A program made the translations under genes and the position numbers. Of a DNA stretch of 64,000 bases, positions 18,396 to 51,081 are shown piece by piece. Position 1 is the first letter of the stretch, and the number at the start of each line of letters is the position of its first letter. This stretch comes from an uncultured Gammaproteobacteria bacterium (GTDB taxonomy: Bacteria; Patescibacteriota; Microgenomatia; UBA12405): assembly GCA_964448465.1 (NCBI GenBank), contig CAYUVY010000001.1, positions 25,196 through 89,195 of the forward strand. Reading direction: 5' to 3'. A model generated the notes under the pieces. The model did not search any database. It saw only the letters and a program-made list of their open reading frames with translations, and was not told the DNA's origin.

Positions 18396-18840
18396 ATTTT
18401 ATTGACCAATCGTAGGGAATTTCAGTATTATTTATTGGATCTAGTCTAATAATCTCCTCGGGATCATGGGGTAAAGTTGCGCAATTAGCTACTATAGCCA
18501 CAGGAGAGCTTATTCCTTTAAATCCATTCCAAACCCCAGTAGGAATTGTTACCAAACTATAGTTTTCGGAACCTAAAAATATTTCTTGGACTTCTCCTTT
18601 GGTCTTAGAATTTTCTCTTGGATCATACAAAACTAGCTTGATCATTCCTGAAACAACGGCATAATTTAAAGTCATCAATTTGTGCAAGTGCCAACCCTTA
18701 ACTACCCCAGGGTAAACAGTTGAAAAATATATTTCTCCAAACTTAATAAAATCAGGATCGTCTGATCTTAACATGGGGTAAATAGCCCCTCTTTCGTCCG
18801 GTCGCTTTGTTAATTGTTTAATCCTTACTCCTTCAATCAT
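18388..18840 (-). CDS. RmlC-like cupin nucleotide-sugar epimerase/isomerase (3,5-epimerase or FdtA/WxcM-like)
   Basis: 150 aa. ERGAIYPMLRSDDPDF...GEIYFSTVYPGVVKGWHLH is typical of dTDP/CDP-4-keto-6-deoxyhexose 3,5-epimerase-type cupins. Last gene of the CDP-sugar operon. Confidence 0.65.
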   Translation of the reverse strand: MIEGVRIKQLTKRPDERGAIYPMLRSDDPDFIKFGEIYFSTVYPGVVKGWHLHKLMTLNYAVVSGMIKLVLYDPRENSKTKGEVQEIFLGSENYSLVTIPTGVWNGFKGISSPVAIVANCATLPHDPEEIIRLDPINNTEIPYDWSIKFK

Positions 18841-19753: not shown

Positions 19754-20985
19754 AAATATTTTGTCAAAAATTCTTGTGTGGTTTTTACTACATATTCTAT
19801 GTCTTCAACAGAAATACCTGGATAAACACCCAACCAAAAAGCATTATTCATAATCATATCGGCTTTTTCCATCAAACCCACTATTTTATATTTAGACTTG
19901 TGTTCCAAATAGGCCGGATGTCGCAGTAAGTTACCAGAAAATACATTACGAGTGCCTATCATGTGGTTTTCCAAATAGGATGTTAGCTCGTTGCGAGTAA
20001 AAGGAGCCTTTGGTTTAACTAATATGGGAAATCCAAAATAGGAGACATCTTCTTTTGGATTATTTTTTAACAACTTAAAGAATTTTTTATACTTTCCAAA
20101 AAATTCTTCTAACAAATTATAATTACGTTGCCTAATTTTTATAAAATTTGGCAATTTCCTCAATTGGGCTAATCCTATGGCTGCCTGGAAATCTGTAAGC
20201 TTTAAATTAAACCCTATCTCCGAATATATATATTTATGATCATAACCTTCGGGTAGTTCTCCAAGTTTCCAGCCAAATCTCTTGTTACAGGTGTTATCTT
20301 TGCCAGGAGCACACCAACAATCTCTTCCCCAATCTCTAAACTGGCGCATTTTTGTGTGCAATATAGCACTGTTAGTCACCACGGCGCCTCCCTCACCCAT
20401 AGTTATTTGATGTGCAGGGTAAAAGCTATAAGTAGCCATATCCCCAAAGGTTCCAAGCATCTTACCTTTATACTTTGAACCCAAAGCATCACAACAATCT
20501 TCGATTAACCATAAATTATACTTTTTACACAACTTTACAATTTTATCTATCTCAAAAGGCTTACCAAGAGTATGAGCCAACATTATCAACTTTGTTTTTT
20601 TTGTTATATTTTTTTCTATTTGGGAAGTATCAATATTTAGTGTGTCCAAAGAAGCATCAATAAAAATTGGTTTTAGTCCAAACATCAAGGCGGGGTTAAC
20701 CGTAGTGGGAAATGCCACTGCAGTGGTTATAAACTCATCTCCTGCTCTTAATCTTCTTTCTTTAAAAATACGAGAGGTCAAAGTGGCCAATGCCAGCAAA
20801 TTTGCCGAGGAACCAGAATTTACCAAAGAAACATGCCTAACCCCCAAAAACTTCTTAAATTCTGACTCAAACTCCAAAGCGAATCTTCCCTCAGTCCACC
20901 AACCATCTTTTGCTGCTTCAATTGCGTTATTTATTTCCGACTCATCAAAAACTTTCCCAGAAACTTGGATATATTTTCTATTCAT
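19750..20985 (-). CDS. rfbH: CDP-6-deoxy-D-xylo-4-hexulose 3-dehydrase (E1, DdhC/RfbH-type; DegT/DnrJ/EryC1 fold)
   Basis: SFYPAHQITMGEGG has His in place of the PLP-binding Lys, as in E1 and ColD. The Cys pattern DCC-x57-CWC-x7-C matches the E1 [2Fe-2S] motif Cx57CxCx7C as I remember it. Adjacent to rfbF and rfbG. Confidence 0.8.
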   Translation of the reverse strand: MNRKYIQVSGKVFDESEINNAIEAAKDGWWTEGRFALEFESEFKKFLGVRHVSLVNSGSSANLLALATLTSRIFKERRLRAGDEFITTAVAFPTTVNPALMFGLKPIFIDASLDTLNIDTSQIEKNITKKTKLIMLAHTLGKPFEIDKIVKLCKKYNLWLIEDCCDALGSKYKGKMLGTFGDMATYSFYPAHQITMGEGGAVVTNSAILHTKMRQFRDWGRDCWCAPGKDNTCNKRFGWKLGELPEGYDHKYIYSEIGFNLKLTDFQAAIGLAQLRKLPNFIKIRQRNYNLLEEFFGKYKKFFKLLKNNPKEDVSYFGFPILVKPKAPFTRNELTSYLENHMIGTRNVFSGNLLRHPAYLEHKSKYKIVGLMEKADMIMNNAFWLGVYPGISVEDIEYVVKTTQEFLTKYL

Positions 20986-21955
20986 TAAAATAAGTCTTGT
21001 ACCATTTATAAATTTTTTTAACTACTTTCTCATAAGTATACAATCTTTTCCAACCTAGCATTTTTTTAGCCTTTTCATCATCTAACTTTTGGTATGCTAA
21101 TTCGTTTTTTGCATTATCCAAAATACTATACTTCAATTTTTTACCCAAGACACTTTCTGATAATCTTATTAAATCAATTACACTAAGGGAGTCCTCTGAG
21201 CCAAAATTAAAAGCTTCACCTTTAATATTTTCGATCTTAGACCCCATCAACAAATAACCATTTACCACATCATCTACGTACAAATAATCCCTTACTTGTT
21301 TGCCGTTGCTCCTTAACTCTAATAGCTGATTTAGGCAAAAACTTTTCATAATTGCTGGTACTATCCTAGAAAAGTATAAATCACCTTCTCCATATATATT
21401 ACCAGCCCTAGCTATGGCAACAGGTAATTGATAGGTTTTCCAGTAAGTATGGGCAATTAAATCAGCACAACTCTTAGATACATCATAAGGATGATCGCCC
21501 TTTAGGGGGTCAGACTCCTTATATTTATCCCCAGACCTTAGTGGCCCATAGGCCTTGTCCGAGGTAACCACTACAATTGCTTTAATTCTAGGATAATTTC
21601 TGGCAGCCTCCAGTATATTAACTGTCCCCATTATATTAGTCTCTAGGCACTCTTTTGGGTTAACATAAGCCACACCCACAATTGGTTGAGCAGCTAAATG
21701 AAAAATATAGTCAATCTCGGCGCCAGTGATCAAATTAAATAAGCCATTGTAGTCTCTTACATCTAAATTTTCCAAAACCAATCTTGGAGAATGCATCTTT
21801 ATGAGGTCAAATTTTATTAAATTATCCTGCTTATAGGTACAAACCACGCTAGCCCCCAAACTTAGTAACTTTCTTACTAGGTTACTCCCCACAAAGCCGG
21901 TACCCCCTGTCACCAATACGTTCTTGTTAAGATACGCGTCCCTTAAAGTTCCCAT
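20978..21955 (-). CDS. rfbG: CDP-glucose 4,6-dehydratase-like SDR
   Basis: VLVTGGTGFVGSNLVRKL, TSDKAYG and YDVSK (YxxxK) motifs. Located between rfbF and rfbH. Confidence 0.7.
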   Translation of the reverse strand: MGTLRDAYLNKNVLVTGGTGFVGSNLVRKLLSLGASVVCTYKQDNLIKFDLIKMHSPRLVLENLDVRDYNGLFNLITGAEIDYIFHLAAQPIVGVAYVNPKECLETNIMGTVNILEAARNYPRIKAIVVVTSDKAYGPLRSGDKYKESDPLKGDHPYDVSKSCADLIAHTYWKTYQLPVAIARAGNIYGEGDLYFSRIVPAIMKSFCLNQLLELRSNGKQVRDYLYVDDVVNGYLLMGSKIENIKGEAFNFGSEDSLSVIDLIRLSESVLGKKLKYSILDNAKNELAYQKLDDEKAKKMLGWKRLYTYEKVVKKIYKWYKTYFNE

Positions 21956-22707
21956 ACCTTACCTTTCTCATCTACAATTTTATTTAAATCTTCAAGCTCT
22001 TTGTATGTGTCAACAGCATACCAAAAACCAGTATGCTTAAATATTGCCAACTGTCTATCTTTAGCCATTTTATCCAAGGATACAAAGTCCATTTCATCTT
22101 TAGAAAAATATTTTAAAGCTTTTCTCTTATAAACCATAAATCCAGCATTTGTCCAGTCTGACATTATGGGTTTTTCTTCAATTTGCACAACAACTCCCTT
22201 CTCATCAACATGAATCTTGCCGTATTTTGACCTAGGATGAGCACACAATACTGTACCAGCCAGTCCAGTCTTTTTGTGAAACTCGTGAAACTTTTTAAAA
22301 TCTACAGAAGCCAAGCCGTCAGCATAGCAAACCATAAAATCTTCGTCCTCCTTGGGAATATATTTGGCGCACATCAAAATTCTTTCTGCGGTTTTTGTAT
22401 AACTACCCGTAGCTAATAAGGTAACTTTAAAATTTAAGTTAAGCTTATTAAAATATTTTATTTTACCTGTTTTTAAGTTTAGCTGAAGGTCGTTATCTCG
22501 TTGTTTAAAGTTTAAAAAATATTCCTTTATCTGGTTACCCATTAACCCTGTTGTCAAAATAAAATCATTGTAACCATACTTCATAAAATGATTCATAATG
22601 TGCAACACTATCGGCTTCCCTGCAACTTCCACCATCGACTTAGGTTTGAATTGTGTTTCTTCTTTTAGTCTTGTACCCGTACCCCCACACAAAATAATTA
22701 CTTTCAT
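21943..22707 (-). CDS. rfbF: Glucose-1-phosphate cytidylyltransferase
   Basis: MKVIILCGGTGTRLKEETQFKPKSMVEVAGKPIVLHIMNHFMKYGYNDFIL is a near-textbook RfbF/DdhA N-terminus. 254 aa. Confidence 0.85.
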   Translation of the reverse strand: MKVIILCGGTGTRLKEETQFKPKSMVEVAGKPIVLHIMNHFMKYGYNDFILTTGLMGNQIKEYFLNFKQRDNDLQLNLKTGKIKYFNKLNLNFKVTLLATGSYTKTAERILMCAKYIPKEDEDFMVCYADGLASVDFKKFHEFHKKTGLAGTVLCAHPRSKYGKIHVDEKGVVVQIEEKPIMSDWTNAGFMVYKRKALKYFSKDEMDFVSLDKMAKDRQLAIFKHTGFWYAVDTYKELEDLNKIVDEKGKVWEL

Positions 22708-36798: not shown

Positions 36799-38187
36799 AT
36801 GCTTTTCAGCTCGAATATATTTTTACTAATATTCCTTCCCGCAATCCTTCTTTTGTATTTCTCGGTCTCCAAAATATTTAAAAATCCAAATAATTTTCTA
36901 AATTTAATACTTATCTTTTTTAGCCTATTTTTTTACTATTGGGGCAGTGGCAAATTTATTCTAATCTTCTTCTGTTCCATCATGTTAAATTTTCTTTTAG
37001 GCCAATTAATTGCAAAAAAAACAAACTTAAAAAAATATTTTTTATTTCTTGGCATTACTGGCAACATTTCCTTACTTATATATTTCAAATATTTTCAATT
37101 TTTTTATCAGCAAACATCTTTTTTACTTCATCTTGGTCTACCACCACTAAATCCTATATTTCTCCCCATTGGTATTTCCTTTTATTCTTTTATGGCCATT
37201 TCCTATCTTGTAGATGTTTACCAACAAAAACAAAAACCTGCAAACCTCCTCAGCTTTACACTGTATATTAGTTTGTTCCCTCATTTAGTTGCTGGACCAA
37301 TTGTCCGCTATCAGGAAATTGCCGACAGTATTAAGAAACGAAGTCCCAACACAGATCAGTTTTTCAATGGACTATGGCGATTTTCCCTGGGACTTGGTAA
37401 AAAAGTAATTATTGCCAATTCCGTAGGACAGCTTGCTGATAAAGTTTTTAGCCTCCCGTTAAACGAAATTGGCTCGCTACTCGCAATTTTGGGAGTACTT
37501 GCTTATACAATTCAAATCTATTTCGATTTTTCTGGTTACTCCGATATGGCGATAGGTCTTGCCAGTTTCTTTGGTTTTACTTTTCCTGAAAATTTCAATC
37601 ATCCTTACCGTGCTGTTTCCATCACTGACTTTTGGCGTCGTTGGCACATGTCTCTATCCCGATTTTTTCGTGACTATCTGTATATACCCCTAGGTGGTAG
37701 TCGTACAGGATCTGCCAGAACCTATTTCAACCTACTTGTTGTCTTTATTCTCTGTGGTCTTTGGCATGGTGCAGCTTGGACCTTTGTAGCCTGGGGTTTA
37801 TACCACGGATTGTTACTAACCATCGAAAGAATTGCTAAGAACAAATTTAATTTTGAACCAAGTGGCATAATATTTCAGTTATTTACTTTCTTACTGGTTT
37901 CTATTGGCTGGATAATATTTCGTTCACCGAACCTTACCTTTGCATTATCTTACGTAAAAAATATATTTTCGTTTACTAACACCATACCTGAGTTTTACAC
38001 ACTTCGATATTTTGTACCCAACAACATTGCTTTCTTTTTAGCGCTTGGCTTGTTACTTTCATTCATACCAGCAACCAAACCAAAAAACGTTGTCATTTGC
38101 GGACTTGTCTCCATATTTATACTAATACTTTCACTTGCCTATCTATCCAAAACCTCATTTACTCCTTTTATATATTTTCAATTTTAA
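36799..38187 (+). CDS. MBOAT-family membrane O-acyltransferase (AlgI/DltB-like)
   Basis: WRRWHMSLSRFFRDYLYIPLGG and FPHLVAGPIVRY are hallmark MBOAT/AlgI motifs. The conserved His is in GLWHGAAW. Confidence 0.85.
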   Translation: MLFSSNIFLLIFLPAILLLYFSVSKIFKNPNNFLNLILIFFSLFFYYWGSGKFILIFFCSIMLNFLLGQLIAKKTNLKKYFLFLGITGNISLLIYFKYFQFFYQQTSFLLHLGLPPLNPIFLPIGISFYSFMAISYLVDVYQQKQKPANLLSFTLYISLFPHLVAGPIVRYQEIADSIKKRSPNTDQFFNGLWRFSLGLGKKVIIANSVGQLADKVFSLPLNEIGSLLAILGVLAYTIQIYFDFSGYSDMAIGLASFFGFTFPENFNHPYRAVSITDFWRRWHMSLSRFFRDYLYIPLGGSRTGSARTYFNLLVVFILCGLWHGAAWTFVAWGLYHGLLLTIERIAKNKFNFEPSGIIFQLFTFLLVSIGWIIFRSPNLTFALSYVKNIFSFTNTIPEFYTLRYFVPNNIAFFLALGLLLSFIPATKPKNVVICGLVSIFILILSLAYLSKTSFTPFIYFQF

Positions 38188-39395
38188 TGACTGCCTTTTC
38201 CTCTTTAATGTTTTGGCACAACATAAAAGTTATCTTTTTAACGGTTATCTTCGGGCTTATTATCTTAAAGATACTTAACAAATATCTTAACCAAAAGAGA
38301 ATTTTTATAGGGTTATTTTTTGTTCTATTACTTATTCCATTTGTTCAAACTAAAACAAACCTCATTCAGTATCGCCCCTTAGAAGAAAATCGCAAAAAAT
38401 TAACCCTCCCTACCGGTAACCCTGTTATTGAAATTTTCAACAACCAAAAAACATACACCTTGGCTTATGAAAAATACTTCAACGATAACTATGGTCTGCG
38501 AGATTTATTTATTCGTGTAAAAAACCAAATCGACTACTCACTATTTAGGGTATCTGACGAAGTATTAATAGGAAAAGATAATTGGCTTTTTTACAAAAGT
38601 GTTGTTGAGAAGGAACAAGTATATATGGAACAGCAAAGCAATACACAATTATTAGCCATACAAGACAAAATGATTTCATTGAATAACTATTTTAAAAAGA
38701 GGGGTGTGTTGTTTGTGGTAATGCCAATACCTTTAAAAAACTCTATATATCCAGAGTTGTATATTAATAGAACAACAAACAGACCTAGTCCAACAAAATT
38801 CGAACGATTTATTGCATTTCTCCAAACACACCCTGAAATTAAATCTATAGACGCAAGATCTATTTTGCTTAACAATAAAGATAAATACCAACTTTTTTAT
38901 AAAACAGATTTTCATTGGACAGATACTGCAGCATATTTAGTCAACAAAGATACTGTTGAATCAATAAATAAATGGGTACACGGAACAACCAAGTGGAGCT
39001 ACTCACTTCAAACCCAAGAAGATAGTAGTTTTACAGGTGGACAAACTGATTCACTTGCAACACTTGTCTCACCTAGAGAAGTGGCAATTCATGTAATAAA
39101 CTCACCAAAAGGCTCTACACCTGACCCTAAAACACCAAAACCTTTCTTATACTACTTTAAATCTTCACTTACAAATCAGAAGTTATTGCCAAAAACCTTG
39201 CTTATTGGCAATTCATACTTTTTAAACATGCTTAACACTGGTTTTGTTGATCACTTTGATGAATTTTTGATGATCCATGGTAATGACATGGATAAAATAC
39301 CAGAATCAATCCCTAAAGATGTAAAAGTGGTAATATTTCAAATGATAGAAGTAGACCTGTTAAAAAATTTTTTGTTCAGTAAATCTAACACATAA
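38187..39395 (+). CDS. AlgJ/AlgX/DltD-like SGNH-type O-acyltransferase partner (N-terminal membrane anchor)
   Basis: N-terminal TM helix, then the KTDFHWTDTAAY motif (DxHW is typical of the AlgJ/AlgX family). Immediately downstream of the MBOAT gene, with the ATG overlapping its stop (TAATG). Confidence 0.55.
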   Translation: MTAFSSLMFWHNIKVIFLTVIFGLIILKILNKYLNQKRIFIGLFFVLLLIPFVQTKTNLIQYRPLEENRKKLTLPTGNPVIEIFNNQKTYTLAYEKYFNDNYGLRDLFIRVKNQIDYSLFRVSDEVLIGKDNWLFYKSVVEKEQVYMEQQSNTQLLAIQDKMISLNNYFKKRGVLFVVMPIPLKNSIYPELYINRTTNRPSPTKFERFIAFLQTHPEIKSIDARSILLNNKDKYQLFYKTDFHWTDTAAYLVNKDTVESINKWVHGTTKWSYSLQTQEDSSFTGGQTDSLATLVSPREVAIHVINSPKGSTPDPKTPKPFLYYFKSSLTNQKLLPKTLLIGNSYFLNMLNTGFVDHFDEFLMIHGNDMDKIPESIPKDVKVVIFQMIEVDLLKNFLFSKSNT

Positions 39396-40145: not shown

Positions 40146-41096
40146 ATGAAACAAACTGCTAAATTAATAAGTATTGTGATCCCTGCATTTAATGAAAGTA
40201 AAATAATTTCAACTTCTGTTTCTAGGGTGATTAAAACATTAATCAAAATTATAAAAATATCGTTAATAAATAACTATGAAATAATTTTTGTAGATGACGG
40301 TAGCAAAGATAACACATGGGGTTGCATTAAAAATTTACATAAAAAAAATTCAAGAATCAAAGGTATAAAGTTATCACGAAATTTTGGTATGCAGACTGCA
40401 CTGATGGCTGGTTTAAAAAAAGCAACGGGGGATTACACAGTAATACTTGAATGCGACCTACAAGATCCACCGGAATTAATTGAGGGAATGTTAAATAAAT
40501 TGATAAAAACAAGAAGTGATATTGTATGTGGAAAGAGAATAAGTCGATCAGAATCAGGTCAAAAGCAATTTGTATTTAAACTATTCCATTATATTTTTCA
40601 CAACATTAGTAACATAAAGGTCCCTCAAAATGTCGGCACCTTTTCAATTTTAAACAGAAGAGCGCTAACTGCCCTGTTAAGTTTTAAAGAAAAAAACCGG
40701 TACATACCTGCTCTAAGATATCTTGTCGGATATAAACAAATATATGTAAACTATGAAAGACTTGACAGGGTTGATGGACCAGCCAAAATGAGCACATCAA
40801 AATTACTTGCTCTAGCATCAGACGCTCTCTTTTCATTCACTGATTTTCCTTTAAAGTTTTGTCTATTCCTGGGTTTTACTGGCGTTTTGCTATCTTTATT
40901 AGTAGGGTTGTATGCAATAATTTCAAGACTATTTAATTTCAATGTGATTATTGGTTGGAGCTCAACACTACTTAGTATCTATTTTTTTGGCAGCCTACAA
41001 TTAATCTTTCTTGGAGTTATTGGACAATATATTTTTAAAATATACATAGAGGTTCAGGATAGGCCCGACTATTTTATATCAGACGAAACAAAATAA
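40146..41096 (+). CDS. Polyprenyl-phosphate glycosyltransferase (GT2; GtrB/ArnC/DPM1-like, two C-terminal TM helices)
   Basis: ISIVIPAFNESKII...FVDDGSKDNTW and DLQDPPEL motifs. Two C-terminal TM helices (FLGFTGVLLSLLVGLYAII...LIFLGVIGQYIFKIY) are typical of GtrB/ArnC. Confidence 0.75.
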   Translation: MKQTAKLISIVIPAFNESKIISTSVSRVIKTLIKIIKISLINNYEIIFVDDGSKDNTWGCIKNLHKKNSRIKGIKLSRNFGMQTALMAGLKKATGDYTVILECDLQDPPELIEGMLNKLIKTRSDIVCGKRISRSESGQKQFVFKLFHYIFHNISNIKVPQNVGTFSILNRRALTALLSFKEKNRYIPALRYLVGYKQIYVNYERLDRVDGPAKMSTSKLLALASDALFSFTDFPLKFCLFLGFTGVLLSLLVGLYAIISRLFNFNVIIGWSSTLLSIYFFGSLQLIFLGVIGQYIFKIYIEVQDRPDYFISDETK

Positions 41097-41121
41097 TTAT
41101 TCTTAACTAATCAAATCTTTT

Positions 41122-42720
41122 CTACGGTTGTTTTTTTCTTTTAATTATTGCCATATTATTTATTATTTTTGGATTACTTAGGTCATAACCTAATTTATCC
41201 ATTCTGTTTAATAAATACTGATCTGCCTTTTTTGCATTATCTGCACCAAGAAAGGAAAGGTACCCACTCATTTCCATATGACTATCTCCAATTTTATTTA
41301 CTCTAAGTATCACATAGTCTGCTGAATCAATTCCTAACGGGTAATAATACACCTTTCTTCCTTCAAAAATAGGCACCCAAAATTCTTCTGGTGCTGACAC
41401 AATTGTCCCTTTTAACATGCTGTCGTCAATAGAGTTATTCCTCTGTACTAAGTAATCATAATACCCTCGATGCTTAAGGAAATCTTGGGCTATATTTTTA
41501 TATTGAAGCCAAGCATTTTTTCTAACATCGTTAATGTTAAATTTTAAGTTTTTCCAACCAAAAGGATTAGTACTCCATAGCACTATTGCTATACCAAAAA
41601 GCACTAAATAACTAAAATATATCCAATGCCTCTCTTTAATATATTTATTTAGTTTCACATATCCTTTGGCAGACGCCCAAACTAATACAGGAAAATAAAT
41701 CGAATGGTAGTGAGTTGACCAACCCATTTTTTCTGCTCCTCCAATACTGCCAACAATGTTTGGCAACATAACCATAATCGCGAGTAGGGATGCTTTTTTT
41801 TCCCAAACTCCAAAAATTAATAAGAAAATACCGTTAAACAACAAAAACACTGCCAAATTCTTAACTAACAAAGGGTCCTTAATCAAATTTGGAAAAAAAT
41901 TTATAAAACTATGTATTGTTAAAAAAGACGAGTAGTAAACGTTTTCCAGATAGATATTGGTTATTAAGTAGCCAACAATAAATATTAATGAGCCAGCTAA
42001 CAACAACCACACCTTCTCTTTCTTCGTCAGCCTAGTATGATATAAAAACACATAACCAATAATAAACATTCCGGTGATTAAGGCCGTCTTTTCTACTATC
42101 ATCGCACAAATAACCGCTACCAAAACAACCCATTTCATTCGAATCTTATTATTATCCACCAATAAGGCCAACAATAAACCAAACAACATAAACAATCTAT
42201 CAGGATAAATTTGCCATTGAACAGAATAATTCCAGGCAGGATGAGCCGAAATTAACAAGCAAAATAACACTGATCCTATTACCGATACACTCTTGCTACG
42301 CAAAAACCAATATATTAATCCCAACATTCCTATAAATACGACAGATGTTGCTATAGCCCAGACCCAAACAGCTGGAAATAGCCAAACAAAAGGAACAAGC
42401 AGATAAAGAATTAAATAAAAATGAATTTTAAATGCATTCGCGTTGCCATAGTCTTTAGGACTAAAATCCAAAAATTTTAAATCATCTGCTTTTATATTTA
42501 GCAAATCGGACTTGGTCTGAAAATCAACAGTCATTGGCAACATTTGGCTTTTGGGTAGAAAATATTTAGCCATATCCTCTAGTAAACTAACATAAATAGC
42601 ATCATCACCTTGTCCACTCATCCAGTTCACTTTTATTGAAATCGAGAATATTGTCATAAATGTCAATAAAAATATTGACACTACTACTACCTCTAATTGT
42701 TTAATCGAGGTAAACATCAT
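41122..42720 (-). CDS. Large polytopic membrane protein, function unknown (possible glycan-processing membrane enzyme)
   Basis: 532 aa with more than 10 hydrophobic segments. No soluble catalytic motif was recognised. Confidence 0.45.
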   Translation of the reverse strand: MMFTSIKQLEVVVVSIFLLTFMTIFSISIKVNWMSGQGDDAIYVSLLEDMAKYFLPKSQMLPMTVDFQTKSDLLNIKADDLKFLDFSPKDYGNANAFKIHFYLILYLLVPFVWLFPAVWVWAIATSVVFIGMLGLIYWFLRSKSVSVIGSVLFCLLISAHPAWNYSVQWQIYPDRLFMLFGLLLALLVDNNKIRMKWVVLVAVICAMIVEKTALITGMFIIGYVFLYHTRLTKKEKVWLLLAGSLIFIVGYLITNIYLENVYYSSFLTIHSFINFFPNLIKDPLLVKNLAVFLLFNGIFLLIFGVWEKKASLLAIMVMLPNIVGSIGGAEKMGWSTHYHSIYFPVLVWASAKGYVKLNKYIKERHWIYFSYLVLFGIAIVLWSTNPFGWKNLKFNINDVRKNAWLQYKNIAQDFLKHRGYYDYLVQRNNSIDDSMLKGTIVSAPEEFWVPIFEGRKVYYYPLGIDSADYVILRVNKIGDSHMEMSGYLSFLGADNAKKADQYLLNRMDKLGYDLSNPKIINNMAIIKRKKQP

Positions 42721-42721
42721 A

Positions 42722-43276
42722 TCAAAAACTCCTATCCTTTATTTTTCTCGCCGGAACACCAACAACCACCGAGTATCGTTCTGTAGATTTGGTGACAATT
42801 GAGCCAGCTCCCACAACCGTACCTTTTGAAATAGTAACTCCCGGCATAACCACAACATTCGCCGCTATCCACACATTATCTTCAATAATGATTGGTTTTC
42901 TCAGTATAGGTTGGAACAAAACTGCAACTTTATTGTTCTCAATTTGATGTTCGCCCGAGGAGATAACAACATTAGGACCAATGAGAACATTGTCCCCAAT
43001 ACTAACAGCACCTATACCATTTATATATGTATTCGAATTACATGCAAAATTATTACCAATACTAATGTTTTTAGTAAATATAAAGATTACTCCTGGCTGT
43101 ACAAACGCCATACCTTTTATACTATGAGAAAATATCTTTAAATATAAATATCTTAATATATAACCTACGGATCCGGGTAAATATTTTACAAAAAAATATA
43201 TGTCCGACTCGATTTCGCTAACTAAAATATCTTTAAGAGAATAGGCATTAAGTTTCTTGAGGATAAAAGATATCAT
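42722..43276 (-). CDS. Hexapeptide-repeat (left-handed beta-helix) sugar O-acetyltransferase
   Basis: Repeating [LIV]GxxxxI pattern: IGDNVLIGPNVVISSGEHQIE...IIEDNVWIAANVVVMPGVTISKGTVVGAGSIVTKS. Confidence 0.75.
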   Translation of the reverse strand: MISFILKKLNAYSLKDILVSEIESDIYFFVKYLPGSVGYILRYLYLKIFSHSIKGMAFVQPGVIFIFTKNISIGNNFACNSNTYINGIGAVSIGDNVLIGPNVVISSGEHQIENNKVAVLFQPILRKPIIIEDNVWIAANVVVMPGVTISKGTVVGAGSIVTKSTERYSVVVGVPARKIKDRSF

Positions 43277-43731
43277 AATCTTATTGCTAAAACATTGTTA
43301 TATTTTGAGATGACTAGATTAGTATAGTTAACTTTTACACCAGTATATGATAAGTATTTTGTTGCTAAACCATTGTTTGCGGTCAAGAACCCAACAGAAA
43401 TATTATTTTTTTTGAAAAAATTAATAAATAGAGAAACTAACTCTTTTCTATTAAACACGACCGCCATATCAAACATTTGATTGTGAAGATACACGGTCTT
43501 AGGCATCCTCTTTAACGAGAAATAATCCAATAAAACCAAAAGCATTACTCCAGCAGAATAATCCTTTTTCACAATCAAACTTAACATTGGCAAGCAGGCG
43601 ACTACAAACCCTATCTTTGACTTAATTGGTAGCTTTAAAAACCCTTCAACTACAAGCATGATTTGAGACTTACTTGTTAATTTTCTAGCCAAGGAAGCGA
43701 CATCTGGCAAGATTACTAATTTATTTTTCAT
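43273..43731 (-). CDS. Hypothetical protein (152 aa), co-transcribed between the SDR-GFO fusion and the acetyltransferase
   Basis: ORF only. The start overlaps the upstream gene by 11 bp and the stop overlaps the downstream start (ATGA). No recognisable motif. Confidence 0.35.
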   Translation of the reverse strand: MKNKLVILPDVASLARKLTSKSQIMLVVEGFLKLPIKSKIGFVVACLPMLSLIVKKDYSAGVMLLVLLDYFSLKRMPKTVYLHNQMFDMAVVFNRKELVSLFINFFKKNNISVGFLTANNGLATKYLSYTGVKVNYTNLVISKYNNVLAIRL

Positions 43732-45622
43732 TTCTTGAATTTTTATAGCACATACTAATAATCTTCTCGATATTGGTAGCTTCCGAAATTGGACTAAGTA
43801 ATAATTTTGGTTTTACACCAATAATCAAGTTCAAAAATGCCAGATGTTCTAAATAATACTCCTCCCCATATGCATCAGGGTTAATATTAAATATATTTTG
43901 AACACTAGACTCTAAATCTTCAAACATAGTTATAGATTTTTTCTTAGTCTTATTTTCCAATACGACTACCCTAGACTTGTTAACATTTATGGTGTAATTA
44001 TCATAAAATATTTTGCACTCAAGACTGGAGATATCATGCCCAGGTTCTGACCAAGATGCATATACCTTGCCTGAAAAGTCCGGGTAATACAAATCTATAT
44101 TCGCTTCGTCTTCTACTTCAACAGAATACTTCTTATTCAGTATCGAGTTAACTTTGGTTGGAATACCAAAAAATAAGTAGATTATCGAAAAAAAGTGTGG
44201 TCCTGGGTTCATTAGTACACCACCACCAGAAATATCCTTTTTAAACATCCAGCCAGACTTTGGCTTGCCTATAACTTCTGAGTGAAAATAAGTCATTTCA
44301 AAATTTTTAATTTTCCCATATTTACCAGAAAGAATAATCTCCTTGGCTTTCAAAAAGCAACGATTGTACAACATGGTATAACCCGTATAAGCAACCACAT
44401 TATATTTAATGGCAAGATCTCTCAATTCCTTGGTTTGTTCTACGGAAATACAAACCGGTTTTTCTATAAAGACATTAATGTATTTAGAAATAACTTTCCT
44501 TGCAATTTCATAATGATAAGCAGTCGGTGTAAAAACGTAACATGCGTCATAATTTTTTGACGAAAGAGCTAAATCAAGATCCGAATAAACTGGCACAACC
44601 AAACCTAACGTTCTAACTGTGCCAAGAGACACTTTGTTCGTATCCACAATGCCAGCTATCTCGACATTCGAAAAAGATTTTAAAATAGACAAATGCAGTA
44701 AGCCAATTTTTCCTAGCCCTACTATTAAAACTTTCAACTTCGTATTTACTCCAAAGTTACGAGGTGTAAAACCAAACTTATTAACATAAAGACTTACATC
44801 ACAGTTAGTATCCTGAGTTGAACCAAGAATATTGTCAGGGTAAAACGGAGGATTTTTCATTTTCAATATCAAAAAGAATTTTGATGCCAACAATCCAATC
44901 CAAACTGGAATATGTATAACTTTTACACTGCCTAGGCCTAAATATGTAATAAGTCTCTCGTAAAATTGATCGTATGTAATATTCTCTCTAGACCCAAGGT
45001 CAAAAATACCGCCTTCACAATTTTTATCTAGTGCTATATCCATCAGACACCTACACAAATCTTCGATATGAATCGGGCAAACTTTCGCTTGACCATCTCC
45101 AAAAACCGGAATAAACGGCAACATTTTAGCCAATTTTCTAATTTTATTAAACAGACCTAGCTCGCCTTCACCGTAAACAAGACTTGGGCGAACTATTGTA
45201 TAAGGTAAACCAGAATCTATAATAATTTGTTCTCCTTCCAGTTTTGTTTTTGCATAAACACCTTTATTGGTAATCTTTACTGCCTGTGAACTAACGTAAA
45301 CAACTCTTTCAACTTTCTTTATACGACACACCTCGACGAGGTTTCTGGTCCCCTCCACGTTTACCTTGTGACTTAGAACTGGATGATACGGATTTGCGGC
45401 TAAATGAACCACTATCATCCCTGGCTTTATACATTTCGAAATGCTATCTCGATCAAGGATATCTCCAAACACGACCTTTACATTTTTATCGACGATAAAA
45501 TGAGGTAAGCCACTCCTTATCAATGCCATTACTGAAACACCCTGGGCTGCACAATATTCCACAAAACTAGACCCAATAAAACCATTTGCACCGGTAATAA
45601 ATATGCTATTAGTTTTTGACAT
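43721..45622 (-). CDS. Fusion protein: N-terminal NAD-dependent sugar epimerase/dehydratase (SDR) plus C-terminal Gfo/Idh/MocA-family oxidoreductase
   Basis: N-terminus has IFITGANGFIGSSFVEY (Rossmann) and YAKTK (YxxxK). C-terminus has LKVLIVGLGKIGLLHLSIL (second Rossmann) and the FIEKPVCISVEQTKEL EKP motif typical of Gfo/Idh/MocA. Confidence 0.65.
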   Translation of the reverse strand: MSKTNSIFITGANGFIGSSFVEYCAAQGVSVMALIRSGLPHFIVDKNVKVVFGDILDRDSISKCIKPGMIVVHLAANPYHPVLSHKVNVEGTRNLVEVCRIKKVERVVYVSSQAVKITNKGVYAKTKLEGEQIIIDSGLPYTIVRPSLVYGEGELGLFNKIRKLAKMLPFIPVFGDGQAKVCPIHIEDLCRCLMDIALDKNCEGGIFDLGSRENITYDQFYERLITYLGLGSVKVIHIPVWIGLLASKFFLILKMKNPPFYPDNILGSTQDTNCDVSLYVNKFGFTPRNFGVNTKLKVLIVGLGKIGLLHLSILKSFSNVEIAGIVDTNKVSLGTVRTLGLVVPVYSDLDLALSSKNYDACYVFTPTAYHYEIARKVISKYINVFIEKPVCISVEQTKELRDLAIKYNVVAYTGYTMLYNRCFLKAKEIILSGKYGKIKNFEMTYFHSEVIGKPKSGWMFKKDISGGGVLMNPGPHFFSIIYLFFGIPTKVNSILNKKYSVEVEDEANIDLYYPDFSGKVYASWSEPGHDISSLECKIFYDNYTINVNKSRVVVLENKTKKKSITMFEDLESSVQNIFNINPDAYGEEYYLEHLAFLNLIIGVKPKLLLSPISEATNIEKIISMCYKNSRNEK

Positions 45623-46292
45623 TGAGTTTAATCCAAAGTTTAAAAATGTGAAGCATAATCTTTATACCATCTACTGGTTGCAGACCATGCTTTTTGTTTA
45701 AATATACCGTTTCAACTTCAACCGTGTCAAAACTTATACTATTATTACCTGCTAAACAGGTCATCTCCGCTTCAACCCCATACCTATCATCACTCCACAC
45801 AAGATCATTATAAACGCTTTTTTTCATAGCCCTAAAACCACAAAGTAAATCCTTAATATGAACCCCAAACAACAAGTTAACCAAAGAGAACATAGTAGTA
45901 TTTCCTATCCGTCTCAAAATCGGCATTTCTCCTTTTAGGTGTCTAATGCCGATAACCAAATCCTTATTCTTTAATTTTGTGGTAAAAGAATTTATGTGTT
46001 TTGGATTGTGTTGGCCATCCCCATCAATAAATATAACTGCCTCAGCTCCCAAATCCCAGGCTTTTTCTGCACCTACTCGCATTGCATATCCCTTGCCTTT
46101 ATTAACCAGATAATCAATCAAAACAATATTATTTATTTTCTTTAAGACAAGACTAGTTTTATCTGTCGATCCGTCATTAACTACAATAATATTTTTTGCA
46201 TATTTTTTAATCTCCCTTATCGTGTTTACAATCTTTTTGTCCTCGTTAAAAACTGGAACAATCACAAAAATTTTCATAATAAATTGTAGCAC
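45609..46292 (-). CDS. Glycosyltransferase family 2 (GT2), small DPM1-like
   Basis: IFVIVPVFNEDKKIVNTIREI...VNDGSTDKT and FIDGDGQH motifs. Confidence 0.75.
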   Translation of the reverse strand: MLQFIMKIFVIVPVFNEDKKIVNTIREIKKYAKNIIVVNDGSTDKTSLVLKKINNIVLIDYLVNKGKGYAMRVGAEKAWDLGAEAVIFIDGDGQHNPKHINSFTTKLKNKDLVIGIRHLKGEMPILRRIGNTTMFSLVNLLFGVHIKDLLCGFRAMKKSVYNDLVWSDDRYGVEAEMTCLAGNNSISFDTVEVETVYLNKKHGLQPVDGIKIMLHIFKLWIKLNVKN

Positions 46293-46307
46293 GCAATACC
46301 TGAGTAT

Positions 46308-47018
46308 CTATTTAGTTTTTTCCGCCATTAAATTCCCAGCTTTCAGTAAGCTCTCAAAGGTTCCCGCGTCTTCCCACATCCCATCCATAATCTCCACCTT
46401 TAACTCACCCAGGTCCAGATAATGATTGTTTACGGCTGTTATCTCTATTTCTCCCCGTGCCGAGGGTTTTAAGTTCTTGGCTATCTCAATTACCCGATTA
46501 TCGTAGACATACAGACCAGGAACAACATAGTTGCTTCTGGGTTTTACTGGTTTTTCTTCAATAGACACCACTTTCATCTCCTTATCAAATTCCACGACCC
46601 CATAACGACTTGGATCTGGCATTTTCTTGGCAAAAATCAAGGCCCCACCTTTAAAACTATTTATTTGCTTACCAAAATCCTGATCGAAAATATTGTCTCC
46701 AAGTATTAAGGTCACACTATCCTGACCAATATGGTTTTCACCAATTATAAAGGCATCTGCCAACCCTCGCGGCTCCTCCTGAATTTCGTAGCTAAACTTT
46801 GCTCCAAAATTTTTACCCGAACCTAGTAAGTTTAAAAACTGTCCAGCATAATCTGGTGCAATAATTATTAAAATATCTTTTATTCCAGCTTTAACTAGCG
46901 TTTCAATCGGATAATAAATCATCGGCTTATCGTATACCGGCAATAATTGCTTGGAAGTTATTTTAGTCAAAGGCAACAAGCGGGTACCCTTACCCCCAGC
47001 TAGTATAATTCCTTTCAT
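46308..47018 (-). CDS. rmlA: Glucose-1-phosphate nucleotidylyltransferase, short RmlA-like form
   Basis: [52 protein letters not shown] is an RmlA-type N-terminal signature. 236 aa, shorter than the canonical ~290. Confidence 0.75.
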
Positions 47019-47035
47019 TTTAGTATTATAACAAC

Positions 47036-48058
47036 ATGCAGATTTTAGTTACTGGAGGCATGGGGTTTATTGGCACCAACTTTATTCGCTATTGGAAAAA
47101 TAAGTATCCTCAGGATTTAATTCTTAATCTAGACAGTTTAACTTATGCCGCTAATACCTCCAATCTTGAAGATCTAGAAGGGGATAGTCACTATAAGTTT
47201 ATTAAGGGTGATATACGAGACGCAGATATTGTTAAAAAAGCTATGGACGGTGTTGAGCTAGTTGTCCACTTTGCCGCTGAATCTCATGTCGACAGATCTA
47301 TTGATAATCCTACTAAATTTCTAGAAACCAATGTTCTGGGTACCTACACTCTCCTCAGCGAAGCCAAAAATAGCAAAACGTTAAAGAGATTCCACCATAT
47401 TTCTACCGACGAGGTTTATGGCTCCGTCAATCGACATGACCCCAAAGACACTTTTAGTGAAAGTCGTCCTTATGACCCCAGTAGTCCATATTCTGCCAGC
47501 AAGGCCTCTTCCGATCATTTAGTTAATTCTTTTCACAAAACTTTTGGTTTACCAATTTCCATCTCCAATTGTTCCAATAACTACGGTCCTTATCAACATC
47601 CTGAAAAATTCATTCCTAGGGCCGTCACTAGCCTGATCAAGGGAGAGAAAATAAAGATCTACGGCACAGGAGAAAATATTCGCGACTGGCTATATGTGGA
47701 AGACCATTGTCGTGCTATTGATTTAATCATCAATCAAGGCAAACCAGGTTGTAATTATTGCCTTGGCGGGAATTTTCAAGATGTAACTAATTTAGAAATT
47801 GTCAAAAAATTGTGCGAACTGATGAAACTGGATTTTGATAAAAGTGTGGAGTTTGTCGCCGACCGACCTGGACATGATGATTATCGAATTAGTCGAGAAA
47901 AAATTAAAAGTGAACTAGGCTGGGAGCCAACTTATTCTTTTGATACGGGTATTGCAGCCACAATTAATTGGTATAAAGATAACCCCACCTGGTGGCAAGA
48001 AACCAAAAAAGAAGCCGAACAATTTTATTTAAAAACTAGCCCAAAAAAAACCAAATGA
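47036..48058 (+). CDS. rmlB: dTDP-glucose 4,6-dehydratase
   Basis: [41 protein letters not shown] and [12 protein letters not shown] (YxxxK) motifs. Confidence 0.85.
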
Positions 48059-49077: not shown

Positions 49078-50007
49078 CTATCTAACAAGCAGCAACGGCA
49101 GGCCTACTAATTGGCTTATTAAACCAATTACCCCACTAACTCCAGATACCAACACGGCTTTGTGAGGATCCACTCCAACTTGAGAAAAAAAGTATCCATA
49201 CAATAATTCCCTAGCTCCCCAGCCAGAAAGTGAAATTGGCAGTACCAAGATAAAAGAAATTATTGGGAAAATTGAGTAAATACTGGCCAAACTCATATTT
49301 GCCTGCAAAATAACTGCCAAAAAATAATTTGGTAAGATCCAAACTAGTTGAGCAAAAATAGAGATAACATATGCCCCTGCAACCCTGGATAAACCCTCTT
49401 GATTTAATACTTCTTCTATAGATACTATTTTTTGTAACCACTTAATTTTTAGGGCATATTTTTTTAAATCCAATAAATACGCCAAGCCAATTGCCACCCA
49501 CATCCCCACAAACAACCCCAGACAGATAAAAACAATATTGGCAGGCAAGCTTAGTCCTACAACTTTTGCCAAAACAATCCCAATAAAGGCCACGGTTACC
49601 AATGAAACTAGTCCTACTAATCTATCGGCCACCATGGACATGGCCAGTTGTGATTTTTTCAGTTCCGGAAAACTTTTATGTAGTATTAACCACTTGGTCA
49701 CATCCCCACTTAAACTGCCAGGTAAAAACATTCCATAAAAACCCGCCATCGCATTGGCCTTCCAAATTAGCCACAGTCTTTTTGGATCTATCTTTCCCCA
49801 TAACAACCAAGACCAGCGCACTCCCGCCAAAACTCCTACCACTTGAGAATAAATAACAAACATTGGTATTGTCCACCAGGGAATTAAACTAATTTGACCA
49901 ATAATTTCACTAAAACTTATTTTCGTGGAAAGTAAATACACACAACCCAACGTAAACACTAGTCGGAAAGGCAAGGAAGTTATAATTCTCTTAAGCCATG
50001 TCATCAT
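49078..50007 (-). CDS. UPF0104 / LPG-synthase-TM-like flippase-like membrane protein
   Basis: 309 aa with about 8 TM segments. N-terminus LVFTLGCVYLLSTKISFSEI...WWTIPMFVIYSQVVGVLAGVRWSWLL resembles the lysylphosphatidylglycerol synthase TM (flippase-like) domain. Assignment is by architecture. Confidence 0.5.
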   Translation of the reverse strand: MMTWLKRIITSLPFRLVFTLGCVYLLSTKISFSEIIGQISLIPWWTIPMFVIYSQVVGVLAGVRWSWLLWGKIDPKRLWLIWKANAMAGFYGMFLPGSLSGDVTKWLILHKSFPELKKSQLAMSMVADRLVGLVSLVTVAFIGIVLAKVVGLSLPANIVFICLGLFVGMWVAIGLAYLLDLKKYALKIKWLQKIVSIEEVLNQEGLSRVAGAYVISIFAQLVWILPNYFLAVILQANMSLASIYSIFPIISFILVLPISLSGWGARELLYGYFFSQVGVDPHKAVLVSGVSGVIGLISQLVGLPLLLVR

Positions 50008-51081
50008 CTTTATATTCTATCCTATGTTTGTCTCATATTTTCCCCCCGGCTGTCGACGGTGGTTCCCAGATTATTTTCAACCTAGGTAAGCAACTAGAAA
50101 AACATGGTCACCAGGTCACCTATTTCGCAGGTCCAGGTCAGAGTACCGACGATTATCTAAACTCATTTTCTAGATATCTAAAATTTATCCCCATTCTTGG
50201 ACCTATTCTAAAAATCGGACCAATTTTCTCACCCCTAACTTTATTCAAACTAACCAGACTTAAGCCTCAAATTATCTTAGCTGGACCCTTACCCACCACC
50301 ATTGCCCTATATGCATATCTACTTAAGCTGCTAACTGGAGCCAAATTAATTCTTGTGCCTTGCTACCATCCTACTGATCCAAGTTTTAATAACCCAATCT
50401 TTACCTATATTCTCCGAAACTCCAATTTAGTGATAACTCTAACTAACTACGAAACTTACTTCAAACTTCAAACTGTCAAGTTCTACCTCCTGGTATTAAT
50501 GCTGATTTGATACTAAAAAGTAAGCCTAGCTTTCCCAAAACTAAAAATGTTTTGTTTCTTGGTAATTTTGCCGCTCACAAACAAATAATCTTGCTAATTC
50601 AAGCTTTTTGTAAATTAAAAGCACCCTGTACTCTCACTATTGCGGGCAAAAAAACCTTGTATTATCCTGAAATTCAAAAATATCTCCACAACTTACCCAA
50701 ACCAATTCAAACCAAAATTACTTTCATCGACATGGGCTATAATCCTGATTTACTTGTTAACTTGTTAAACTCTTGTACTATCATGTGCCTTCCTTCTTCT
50801 CAAGAAAGCTTTGTATAGTTTTTGCCGAAGCTTGGGCCAGAGGTAAGCCAGTAGTGGGTACCGATATTCCCGCAGTTACCGAACTTTTCCAACAAACCAA
50901 AGGTGGCACAACCTTTAAAAATCTTGATTCCCAATCGCTAACTCAAACCCTAGAAAAACTATTAACAAACCCACAATTCTGCCAAAAACTTGGTCAAAAT
51001 GGTCATAAGTATGTACGACAACAACTCACTTGGGATAAAATTGGTAACCAACTATGCGCTATTTTGCCATCCTTATTTTAA
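49998..51081 (+). pseudogene. Frameshifted GT4 glycosyltransferase, split over three frames (49998-50510, 50507-50818, 50773-51081)
   Basis: Three consecutive ORFs encode the N-domain (VDGGSQIIFNLGKQLEKHGHQV), the middle (PPGINADLILKSKPSFPKTKNVLFLGNF, readable only in the second frame) and the C-domain (FAEAWARGKPVVGTDIPAV) of one GT4. Single-base frame changes are near 50465 and 50813. Confidence 0.6.

Follow-up and report, generated by a model that had tools for sequence, protein, structure and literature searches.

The 64,000-nt stretch of DNA analyzed here, referred to as the window (contig CAYUVY010000001.1 of assembly GCA_964448465.1, forward-strand positions 25,196 to 89,195), encodes on its minus strand a protein of 633 aa (43721..45622) in which an extended short-chain dehydrogenase/reductase (SDR) is joined to an oxidoreductase of the Gfo/Idh/MocA family. 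We propose, at a probability of roughly one in two, that this fusion represents one form of a conserved module for sugar tailoring, consisting of three proteins, the SDR, the Gfo-type dehydrogenase and a novel TIM-barrel (triosephosphate isomerase-type barrel) protein, which would oxidize, rearrange and reduce a hexose. The observations that carry this proposal are direct ones: the fusion itself, intact active sites in both halves, a tight linkage of the three proteins, and a recurring genomic context of family 2 glycosyltransferases (GT2) and of proteins resembling GT-C-type glycosyltransferases and flippases.

The fusion protein and its two halves

The open reading frame (ORF) matches exactly its description in the initial annotation of this DNA, which had been made from the sequence alone and had recognized SDR and Gfo/Idh/MocA halves within one 633 aa ORF. 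Both families were recovered when the Pfam comparison advised there was run, and the halves fall into separate entries: residues 7–207 match Epimerase (PF01370; E 2e-25; 90 bits versus a cutoff of 20.9), residues 296–414 GFO_IDH_MocA (PF01408; E 2e-22; 80.7 bits versus 24) and residues 423–539 GFO_IDH_MocA_C3 (PF22725; 60.1 bits versus 27), with PF02894 matched as well. The motifs quoted in the annotation are present in the translation, namely GANGFIGSS at residues 11–19, YAKTK at 123–127, GLGKIG at 302–307 and EKP at 387–389. The join is short, with about 8 residues between the end of the SDR half ("...KFGFTPRNF") and the first strand of the second Rossmann fold ("KLKVLIVGLGKIG"). In the AlphaFold2 (AF2) model of the fusion, the predicted local distance difference test (pLDDT) score is 91 within the domains, and the mutual orientation of the domains is less certain (predicted template modeling score, pTM, 0.65).

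That an assembly or frameshift artefact fused two neighboring genes is exceedingly improbable, although the concern is not unreasonable for this DNA: the window does hold a broken gene, a family 4 glycosyltransferase (GT4) split over three frames at 49998–51081, and some related loci look frameshift-split, e.g., L031 and L035. Yet the junction region (44740–44860) is ordinary in-frame DNA without a homopolymer run, and the identical 633 aa product was independently assembled from the runs SRR14092380 and SRR14092391, bringing the number of independent assemblies with this ORF to three. Searching the fusion against 5.8 billion proteins returned 270 matches, the best 120 of which are nearly all full-length fusions (623–699 aa, 31–46% identity) from many assemblies; the named sources among these 120 are Shapirobacteria, Microgenomates, WWE3 and other Patescibacteria. 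Since the junction is clean, two other assemblies contain the identical product and over 100 homologues are full-length fusions, the frameshift worry raised in the annotation, along with its question whether the same fusion occurs in other genomes, has been answered, and we rejected the artefact explanation. The 633 aa protein is a genuine single-polypeptide fusion of an SDR and a Gfo/Idh/MocA oxidoreductase.

The SDR half (44753..45622, minus strand; residues 1–290) is of the extended, probably NDUFA9/HpnA-like type and carries the GxxGxxG motif, Ser111, Tyr123, Lys127 and Arg36. In an alignment of 49 homologues, from which active-site conservation was judged for both halves, G11, G14, G17, Y123 and K127 are invariant, while S111 and R36 are each at least 90% conserved; the AF2 model, with a pLDDT of about 90 or above for this half, places S111 at the end of strand 106–110 and Arg36 directly after β2. 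By its Rossmann GxxGxxG and Ser-Tyr-Lys residues, this half thus reads as a bona fide extended SDR. Its closest sequences in the PDB are the 39 kDa/NDUFA9 subunits of complex I (E 7e-14), and its best NCBIfam matches are HpnA (4e-19; 68.7 bits versus a cutoff of 368) and OleD. Scores against the nucleotide-sugar families stayed below the cutoffs throughout, with GalE at 30.5 versus 262, RmlB at 37.8 versus 365, RmlD at 40.1 versus 224, LegB at 54.8 versus 475 and PseB at 34.7 versus 408 bits, so that the SDR half appears to be nearer to NDUFA9/HpnA/OleD-type SDRs than to sugar-nucleotide epimerases. With these proteins it shares the short Ser-x11-Tyr-x3-Lys spacing and the Arg after β2; however, NDUFA9 is a structural subunit of complex I, HpnA is uncharacterized, OleD reduces a lipid ketone, none of the three is fused to a Gfo protein, and the scores of the SDR half fall far short of the family cutoffs. 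Relatives of this half that stand alone were also encountered in L039, L056 and L057, loci lacking a Gfo or barrel gene, where the proteins (395–436 aa in total) have an additional C-terminal ~110–150 aa; for L056, the one extension scanned, no Pfam domain was found.

The Gfo half (43721..44752, minus strand; residues 291–633 plus the stop codon), a putative NAD-type sugar-ring dehydrogenase, is characterized by a GxGxxG motif, Asp327, Glu387-Lys388-Pro389, Asn472 and His476. Here, G302, G304, G307, E387, K388 and H476 are invariant, and P389, N472 and Asp327 are each at least 90% conserved, the latter being located at the end of β2 in the AF2 model. The Rossmann GxGxxG, the EKP motif and a C-terminal domain with the catalytic His mark it as a Gfo/Idh/MocA member. 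Foldseek retrieved GenD2 (6nor; E 6.5e-24) and KanD2 (6jw7) as the best structural matches, with target-normalized template modeling (TM) scores of 0.75–0.80, followed by scyllo-inositol dehydrogenase, levoglucosan dehydrogenase, glucuronide 3-dehydrogenase, DgpA and NAD-dependent glycoside hydrolases; the nearest structures are thus sugar-ring oxidizers that mostly act at C3. For GenD2 itself, in vitro work has demonstrated 3''-oxidoreductase activity on a glycoside, and the enzyme is paired with an aminotransferase (PMC4340712). In NCBIfam, the Gfo half is matched best by the archaeal UDP-GlcNAc (UDP-N-acetylglucosamine) 3-dehydrogenase NF040723 (E 2.8e-21), at 76.4 bits versus a cutoff of 450; membership in this group, whose function is attributed to WbpB/GnnA, was judged by that archaeal model alone. 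The relation to WbpB-type enzymes suggested in the initial annotation therefore holds at the level of the Gfo/Idh/MocA family and fails at that of the UDP-GlcNAc 3-dehydrogenase equivalog. A nucleotide-sugar substrate was an assumption of that annotation. The fusion fails every nucleotide-sugar equivalog model of NCBIfam; judged by these profiles, both halves seem to stand outside every characterized nucleotide-sugar enzyme group tested.

In Rossmann folds, an Arg after β2 indicates NADP, and an Asp ending β2 indicates NAD. Arg36 would accordingly make the SDR half an NADP(H) enzyme, and Asp327 the Gfo half an NAD(H) enzyme, and the combination of an NADP(H)-type SDR with an NAD(H)-type Gfo fits an oxidizing first and a reducing second enzyme. 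The channeling of an intermediate between the halves, as envisaged in the initial annotation, gains from these conserved cofactor signatures insofar as they fit oxidation followed by reduction; the nucleotide-sugar nature of that intermediate was assumed only.

Fused and split forms of the SDR/Gfo pair

A scan of one genome per species, covering 185,579 species, yielded 405 relatives, of which 77 loci (numbered with the prefix L) were kept. The fusion is present in about 33 of them, and about 18 have a separate gene for each of the two proteins, side by side in the same order and frequently overlapping by 4 nt at stop and start; examples of such split pairs are those of Gemmataceae L041, Methylomirabilis L048, L054 and Dehalococcoidales L059. 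The statement that these activities are normally separate proteins thus has its counterpart in the split pairs, and the fusion is no rarity either, being widespread among Patescibacteria, DPANN archaea, Eisenbacteria, Sumerlaeota and others. Adjacent and often overlapping genes such as those for the SDR and Gfo proteins typically signal steps that are consecutive or physically coupled. A Gfo gene without this SDR was found in Thaumarchaeota (L060/L063), Aminicenantes and others.

Linker lengths across the fused forms range from 1 to 44 aa, with a direct join in Patescibacteria and DPANN archaea and a linker of 20–44 aa in Eisenbacteria, Acidobacteriota and some Sumerlaeota. In a rough neighbor-joining tree of the Gfo halves, calculated without support values, the fused forms occupy at least four clades and are interleaved with split forms, a pattern suggestive of a functionally coupled pair that was fused or split more than once. 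The occurrence of fused forms in at least four clades with differing linkers implies selection for coupling.

Directly upstream of the SDR–Gfo fusion, the DPANN loci L015, L016 and L019 contain an ORF of 672–775 aa. In L016 (7617–9944), it represents a second type of two-domain oxidoreductase, composed of a zinc-dependent alcohol dehydrogenase and a Gfo/Idh/MocA domain; the upstream ORFs of L015 and L019 gave weak Gfo-profile matches only. For seven loci (L002, L009, L010, L013, L014, L015, L019), the metagenome-assembled genomes are labeled Pseudomonadales, Francisellaceae, Gammaproteobacteria or Methanosarcinales while the module genes cluster with those of Patescibacteria/DPANN, a mismatch that may reflect mis-binning or mislabeled source assemblies.

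A predicted TIM-barrel partner of the Gfo half

Immediately downstream of the fusion lies a gene for a 152 aa protein (43273..43731, minus strand), the start of which overlaps the fusion stop and the stop of which overlaps the start of the acetyltransferase gene that follows. Iterative profile searches seeded with this ORF defined a family to which it belongs by profile homology; in 61 of the 77 loci, the gene right after the Gfo gene encodes a member, and these loci extend from Patescibacteria to Thaumarchaeota. The 16 loci lacking it comprise 4 that end at a contig edge just past the Gfo gene, 10 that are SDR-only and 2 Gfo loci (L045, L061) in which none was detectable. Given this adjacency and the absence of the barrel gene from all SDR-only loci, the partner tracks the Gfo half and not the SDR. 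The initial annotation had listed a 152 aa unknown protein; it is indeed unannotated, but its role as a near-obligate partner of the Gfo half had been overlooked.

Outside Patescibacteria, the members have 280–300 aa and are always annotated as hypothetical protein. Comparison of the family with Pfam, NCBIfam and PDB sequences produced only marginal matches far under the cutoffs, and a PDB profile search gave nothing below E 0.1. An exhaustive hidden Markov model (HMM) search of 1.84 billion representatives returned only 690 clusters with E ≤ 1e-3, 414 of them with E ≤ 1e-10, and did not spill into large families, so that the family is small and discrete. The AF2 model of the full-length relative P0121 (290 aa; pLDDT 85, pTM 0.83) is a (βα)8 barrel with eight strands alternating with helices. 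With this model, all Foldseek matches were TIM barrels, albeit weak and generic ones, the best being a putative aldo-keto reductase (E 2e-4, TM 0.51); neither by sequence nor by a strong structural match was there a hit to the named TIM-barrel families (aldo-keto reductases, xylose-isomerase-like proteins, NanE, aldolases). Based on the model, a TIM-barrel fold is thus predicted for the family of the 152 aa protein.

Versions from Microgenomates are shortened at both ends, and a short form of 160–190 aa is common to the aligned loci of Shapirobacteria, Roizmanbacteria and other unclassified Patescibacteria. The copy in the window maps to β3–β6 only and is hence a half barrel, in which all nine family-invariant residues (P9, R16, D57, L82, H83, Q85, T117, N119 and N145) are nevertheless kept. 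There is no room for the missing strands, since the flanking genes overlap with it. Function as a homodimeric barrel is one possibility. In L062 (10022–15877), L068 and L071, two Gfo paralogues flank the barrel gene, and L062 adds a SPASM-domain radical SAM enzyme, a methyltransferase and an SDR; these three loci represent a more elaborate version of the module.

Gene neighborhood of the module

Neighbors were clustered without bias around the barrel gene in the 61 loci that have one. The most frequent is a DPM1/PpgS-like GT2, encoded within 8 kb in 40 of the 61, followed by a GT4 (17/61), a DegT aminotransferase (16–20 of 61), a methyltransferase (13/61), an LPG_synthase_TM flippase-like protein (10–12 of 61), a Wzx-like flippase (10/61) and DUF2304 (9/61); most loci from the Candidate Phyla Radiation (CPR) lack DegT. 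DUF2079 or other GT-C-like proteins (GT87, PMT_2) adjoin the module in several Patescibacteria and in Nitrosarchaeum. In Thaumarchaeota, the gene order is PMT_2-like, GT2, methyltransferase, Gfo and barrel in L060, and methyltransferase, Gfo, barrel and LPG_synthase_TM in L063. Systems of the PpgS type feed polyprenyl-phosphate-sugars into envelope decoration (PMC9671496). The recurring neighbors tie the module to a polyprenyl-phosphate-sugar surface-glycosylation route, while the neighborhood cannot tell whether tailoring takes place before or after transfer to the lipid.

In the window, the fusion is the third gene of a tightly packed same-strand cluster and, contrary to the initial statement, does not head it, since RmlA-like and GT2 genes lie upstream on the same strand. 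The first gene (46308..47018, minus strand) encodes an RmlA-like sugar-1-phosphate nucleotidyltransferase of 236 aa (Pfam NTP_transferase, E 2e-63), which with 320 bits versus a cutoff of 360 for NCBIfam rmlA is slightly under equivalog level; it is not conserved beside the fusion in other loci. It is followed by a short soluble GT2 of 227 aa (45609..46292, minus strand; Pfam Glycos_transf_2, E 6e-19) probably of the DPM1/PpgS/ArnC/GtrB type, the stop of which overlaps the fusion start by 14 nt. The best NCBIfam matches of this GT2 are AglJ, PpgS, dolichyl-phosphate hexose transferase and ArnC, all under the cutoff (PpgS 79 bits versus 370), and its nearest PDB relatives are DPMS (5mlz), ArnC (9bhc/8vxh/9hwj) and GtrB (5ekp), at modest E-values of 5.6e-7 to 2.8e-5. 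All top matches in both databases are polyprenyl-phosphate glycosyltransferases, and the enzyme is predicted to be a polyprenyl-phosphate sugar synthase.

Downstream of the barrel gene, a hexapeptide (left-handed β-helix) acetyltransferase of 184 aa (42722..43276, minus strand; Pfam Hexapep) is encoded, which resembles sugar O-acetyltransferases: its best NCBIfam matches are LacA, WcaF, WbbJ and Maa, and its best PDB matches galactoside O-acetyltransferase (1kqa, E 7e-24) and maltose O-acetyltransferases. Since L001 and L004 are the only loci in which it comes after the barrel gene, it is considered accessory. The cluster ends with a polytopic membrane protein of 532 aa (41122..42720, minus strand) assigned to DUF2079 (30.4 bits versus a cutoff of 28.2), without a match among PDB sequences. 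DUF2079, presumed to be of GT-C type from its Pfam clan, would transfer the polyprenyl-phosphate-linked sugar; homologues occur near the module in L004, L007, L010, L014 and L017 and, in L011, directly after the barrel gene (E 1e-55). A more peripheral neighbor is the MprF-flippase-like LPG_synthase_TM membrane protein (49078..50007, minus strand; PF03706, E 1.6e-27), with homologues near the module in L003, L004, L011, L022 and 12 further loci, and directly after the barrel gene in Nitrosopumilus L063. A promoter/terminator scan of 40900–47300 gave counts not above those of shuffled sequence, so the operon boundaries are drawn from gene spacing only. Scans of the window for tRNAs and Rfam families found nothing.

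The operon contains no aminotransferase gene. The nearest DegT gene (19750–20985) is located 23 kb away in a separate sugar operon on the minus strand (18388–22707) with its own 4,6-dehydratase-type SDR (20978–21955); for this reason DegT was rejected as a partner of the Gfo half, and the distant operon probably constitutes an independent amino-deoxy-sugar pathway. The RmlA-like gene (minus strand) and an RmlB-like gene (plus strand) diverge at 47018–47036 with 17 bp between their start codons, which means that their promoters must sit inside coding sequence. We also considered a deoxysugar 3-ketoreductase and 4-ketoreductase pair fed by these adjacent RmlA/RmlB genes and set it aside, since neither of the two is conserved alongside the module and we saw no 2,3-dehydratase.

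Several other features of the window were noted. The broken GT4 gene mentioned above consists of three small ORFs in a row, which are 170, 103 and 102 aa long, lie in different frames of the plus strand and carry, in order, Glyco_transf_4, Glycos_transf_1 profile positions 9–105 and then positions 105–171; this doubly frameshifted GT4 is either a pseudogene or the result of sequencing errors. At 2333–10311 (plus strand), five large ORFs of 507–574 aa are arranged back to back, two of which (7227–8750 and 8683–10311) have weak matches to PMT/PMT_2, a family of dolichyl-phosphate-mannose-dependent GT-C transferases, while the other three match no Pfam family; possibly, the array constitutes an expanded repertoire of transferases for lipid-linked sugars. 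A B12-binding radical SAM protein of 505 aa is encoded within the glycan region at 13940–15457 (plus strand). Finally, 36799–39395 (plus strand) comprises an MBOAT-like ORF and an overlapping AlgJ-like ORF, labeled by reading of the sequence alone, which are 78% and 64% identical to module neighbors in the Shapirobacteria locus L004, and this suggests that the larger locus is conserved and that the window derives from a Microgenomates genome related to Shapirobacteria.

Discussion

In the pathway that we propose, the RmlA-like enzyme would make a nucleoside diphosphate (NDP)-hexose, and the Gfo half would oxidize a ring hydroxyl of the hexose with NAD+; judging from its structural relatives, the ketone would most likely arise at C3. 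On this keto intermediate the barrel partner might then act, e.g., by epimerizing or isomerizing next to the carbonyl, whereupon the SDR half would reduce the ketone with NADPH to give a rare hexose isomer without net redox change. The DPM1/PpgS-like GT2 would place the sugar on polyprenyl phosphate, the hexapeptide transferase would O-acetylate it, and the DUF2079 membrane protein would deliver it to a cell-surface acceptor. We infer the order of the steps, the attacked carbon, the role of the barrel and the chemistry, and the nucleotide sugar and the lipid-linked sugar seem about equally likely as the form that is tailored.

A number of observations do not sit easily with this scheme and weigh against it. 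Thaumarchaeal and some other loci have Gfo and barrel genes without the SDR, and reduction may thus be optional or performed differently; in the 16–20 related loci with a nearby DegT, some versions of the module may make an amino sugar. Gene order is no reliable guide to reaction order, and the inter-domain geometry in the AF2 model of the fusion (pTM 0.65) is uncertain. The structural matches of the barrel are weak (TM ~0.5) and leave its catalytic role a guess, and the partner in the window is only a half barrel.

The two oxidoreductases need not perform consecutive reactions. The SDR could be a GalE-like epimerase or reductase that supplies the GT2 donor, as GalE1 does in the mycobacterial PpgS system, with Gfo and barrel carrying out a self-contained transient oxidation. 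This would account for the barrel following Gfo and never the SDR alone, for Gfo and barrel occurring without this SDR in Thaumarchaeota, Aminicenantes and others, and for SDR-only loci with GT2 neighbors (L039, L056, L057, L072, L074). We nevertheless consider such a division of labor unlikely, as repeated independent fusion, the fixed SDR-then-Gfo order and overlapping stops and starts would be unusual without handover or complex formation, and the SDR fails all GalE/RmlD/RmlB equivalogs. In an amino-sugar route of the WbpB/GnnA/GenD2 kind, by comparison, the 3-keto sugar produced by the Gfo half would be transaminated and then acetylated by the hexapeptide enzyme, and the SDR would serve a separate earlier step. 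The best NCBIfam match of the Gfo half, the archaeal UDP-GlcNAc 3-dehydrogenase, is in line with this, as are the nearest structures, GenD2 and KanD2, which partner aminotransferases, and the acetyltransferase in the operon; for the 16–20 loci with DegT near the module, the route is plausible. For the window it appears quite improbable to us, however, since the operon in the window lacks an aminotransferase and its sole DegT belongs to the distant operon, most CPR loci are devoid of DegT, the acetyltransferase resembles the O-type enzymes LacA, Maa and WcaF instead of the N-type WbpD/PglD, and the 3-dehydrogenase score of 76 bits is far from the cutoff of 450.

A catabolic glycoside 3-dehydrogenase system, in which a glycoside is oxidized and a TIM-barrel lyase then eliminates and hydrolyzes it, as in oxidative glycan-breakdown and C-glycoside pathways, would have a similar Gfo plus TIM-barrel pairing; its credentials further include the structural neighbors glucuronide 3-dehydrogenase, DgpA and NAD-dependent glycoside hydrolases and a weak NCBIfam match to the BT_2158 glycoside 3-dehydrogenase family. 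The surroundings make it very hard to credit: all neighboring functions are biosynthetic (nucleotidyltransferase, GT2, GT4, GT-C, acetyltransferase, flippase-like protein, methyltransferases), no transporters or glycoside hydrolases were seen among them, and the barrel has no xylose-isomerase-like match in Pfam at E ≤ 0.1.

The sugar-tailoring module proposed here shares features with several known systems. GenD2/KanD2 and WbpB/GnnA-type enzymes have the Gfo/Idh/MocA fold, the catalytic residues and, presumably, the NAD+-dependent oxidation of a ring hydroxyl to a ketone in common with the Gfo half, but are only ~20% identical to it and stand alone, without SDR fusion or barrel partner, and their ketone goes to an aminotransferase, which the operon in the window lacks. 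Pairs of a Gfo oxidase and a TIM-barrel isomerase or dehydratase acting on the keto product are known from inositol/keto-sugar systems, namely IolG with IolI/IolE and DgpA with DgpB/C. The module has the same Gfo plus TIM-barrel architecture; it differs in a barrel without a detectable xylose-isomerase-like relationship or an obvious metal-binding set, and in its biosynthetic context. ArnA/ArnC/ArnT, which serve the synthesis of undecaprenyl-phosphate-L-Ara4N, resemble the module in combining a bifunctional fusion enzyme that contains an extended SDR with a DPM1-like GT2 (ArnC) and a GT-C transferase; ArnA, however, unites a formyltransferase with a decarboxylating SDR of another subfamily, without Gfo, and the pathway needs an aminotransferase. 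The PpgS/Rv3632 system for polyprenyl-phosphate-GalNAc of Corynebacteriales likewise employs a short soluble PpgS-like GT2, with an SDR nearby, in envelope decoration (PMC9671496), and its small membrane partner DUF2304 also appears in 9 related loci of the module, whereas a Gfo dehydrogenase and a barrel protein are missing from it.

With regard to reaction logic, DprE1/DprE2 offer a parallel. They epimerize decaprenyl-phosphoryl-ribose to decaprenyl-phosphoryl-arabinose, with the oxidase making a keto intermediate and the SDR reducing it to the epimer; the substrate is a polyprenyl-phosphate-sugar later used by GT-C transferases. The module would follow the same oxidize-then-SDR-reduce logic and is embedded among GT2, GT-C-like and flippase-like genes. 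Nonetheless, DprE1 is a flavoenzyme and DprE2 a classical short SDR, the two are unfused and without a barrel, and they have no sequence relationship to the module; their substrate is lipid-linked, while lipid-linked action of the module is a hypothesis. A bolder version of our proposal, which we put forward tentatively as possible though rather doubtful, is that SDR–Gfo and barrel act on a sugar attached to polyprenyl or dolichyl phosphate. The module would then be an NAD(P)-dependent, DprE1/DprE2-like lipid-linked sugar isomerase built from unrelated parts, with a new TIM-barrel family whose members in Microgenomates function as half barrels, and it would be shared by Patescibacteria, DPANN archaea, Thaumarchaeota and several uncultured phyla as a common route to a rare surface sugar.

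The domain combination is already present in public databases under generic annotation, both families are well known, and the fusion by itself does not constitute a categorical novelty. The novelty lies in defining a conserved SDR/Gfo/novel-barrel module, in its spread over candidate phyla of bacteria and archaea, and in the half-barrel form of the partner. Literature searches on Gfo/MocA proteins in connection with polyprenyl or undecaprenyl, on DUF2079 and on NDUFA9-like SDRs in glycosylation returned nothing relevant.

The lifestyle of Patescibacteria and DPANN archaea is one of attachment to host cells, and to our knowledge almost nothing is known about their surface glycans. The module is one of few conserved, lineage-spanning glycan-tailoring units in these organisms and is also present in ammonia-oxidizing Thaumarchaeota. 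It represents a concrete, testable three-protein system and defines a TIM-barrel family that is annotated in no database, and a natural half barrel that keeps every conserved residue is of interest for barrel evolution. If its substrate is lipid-linked, the module would be a second, independent solution to the epimerization of a polyprenyl-phosphate sugar.

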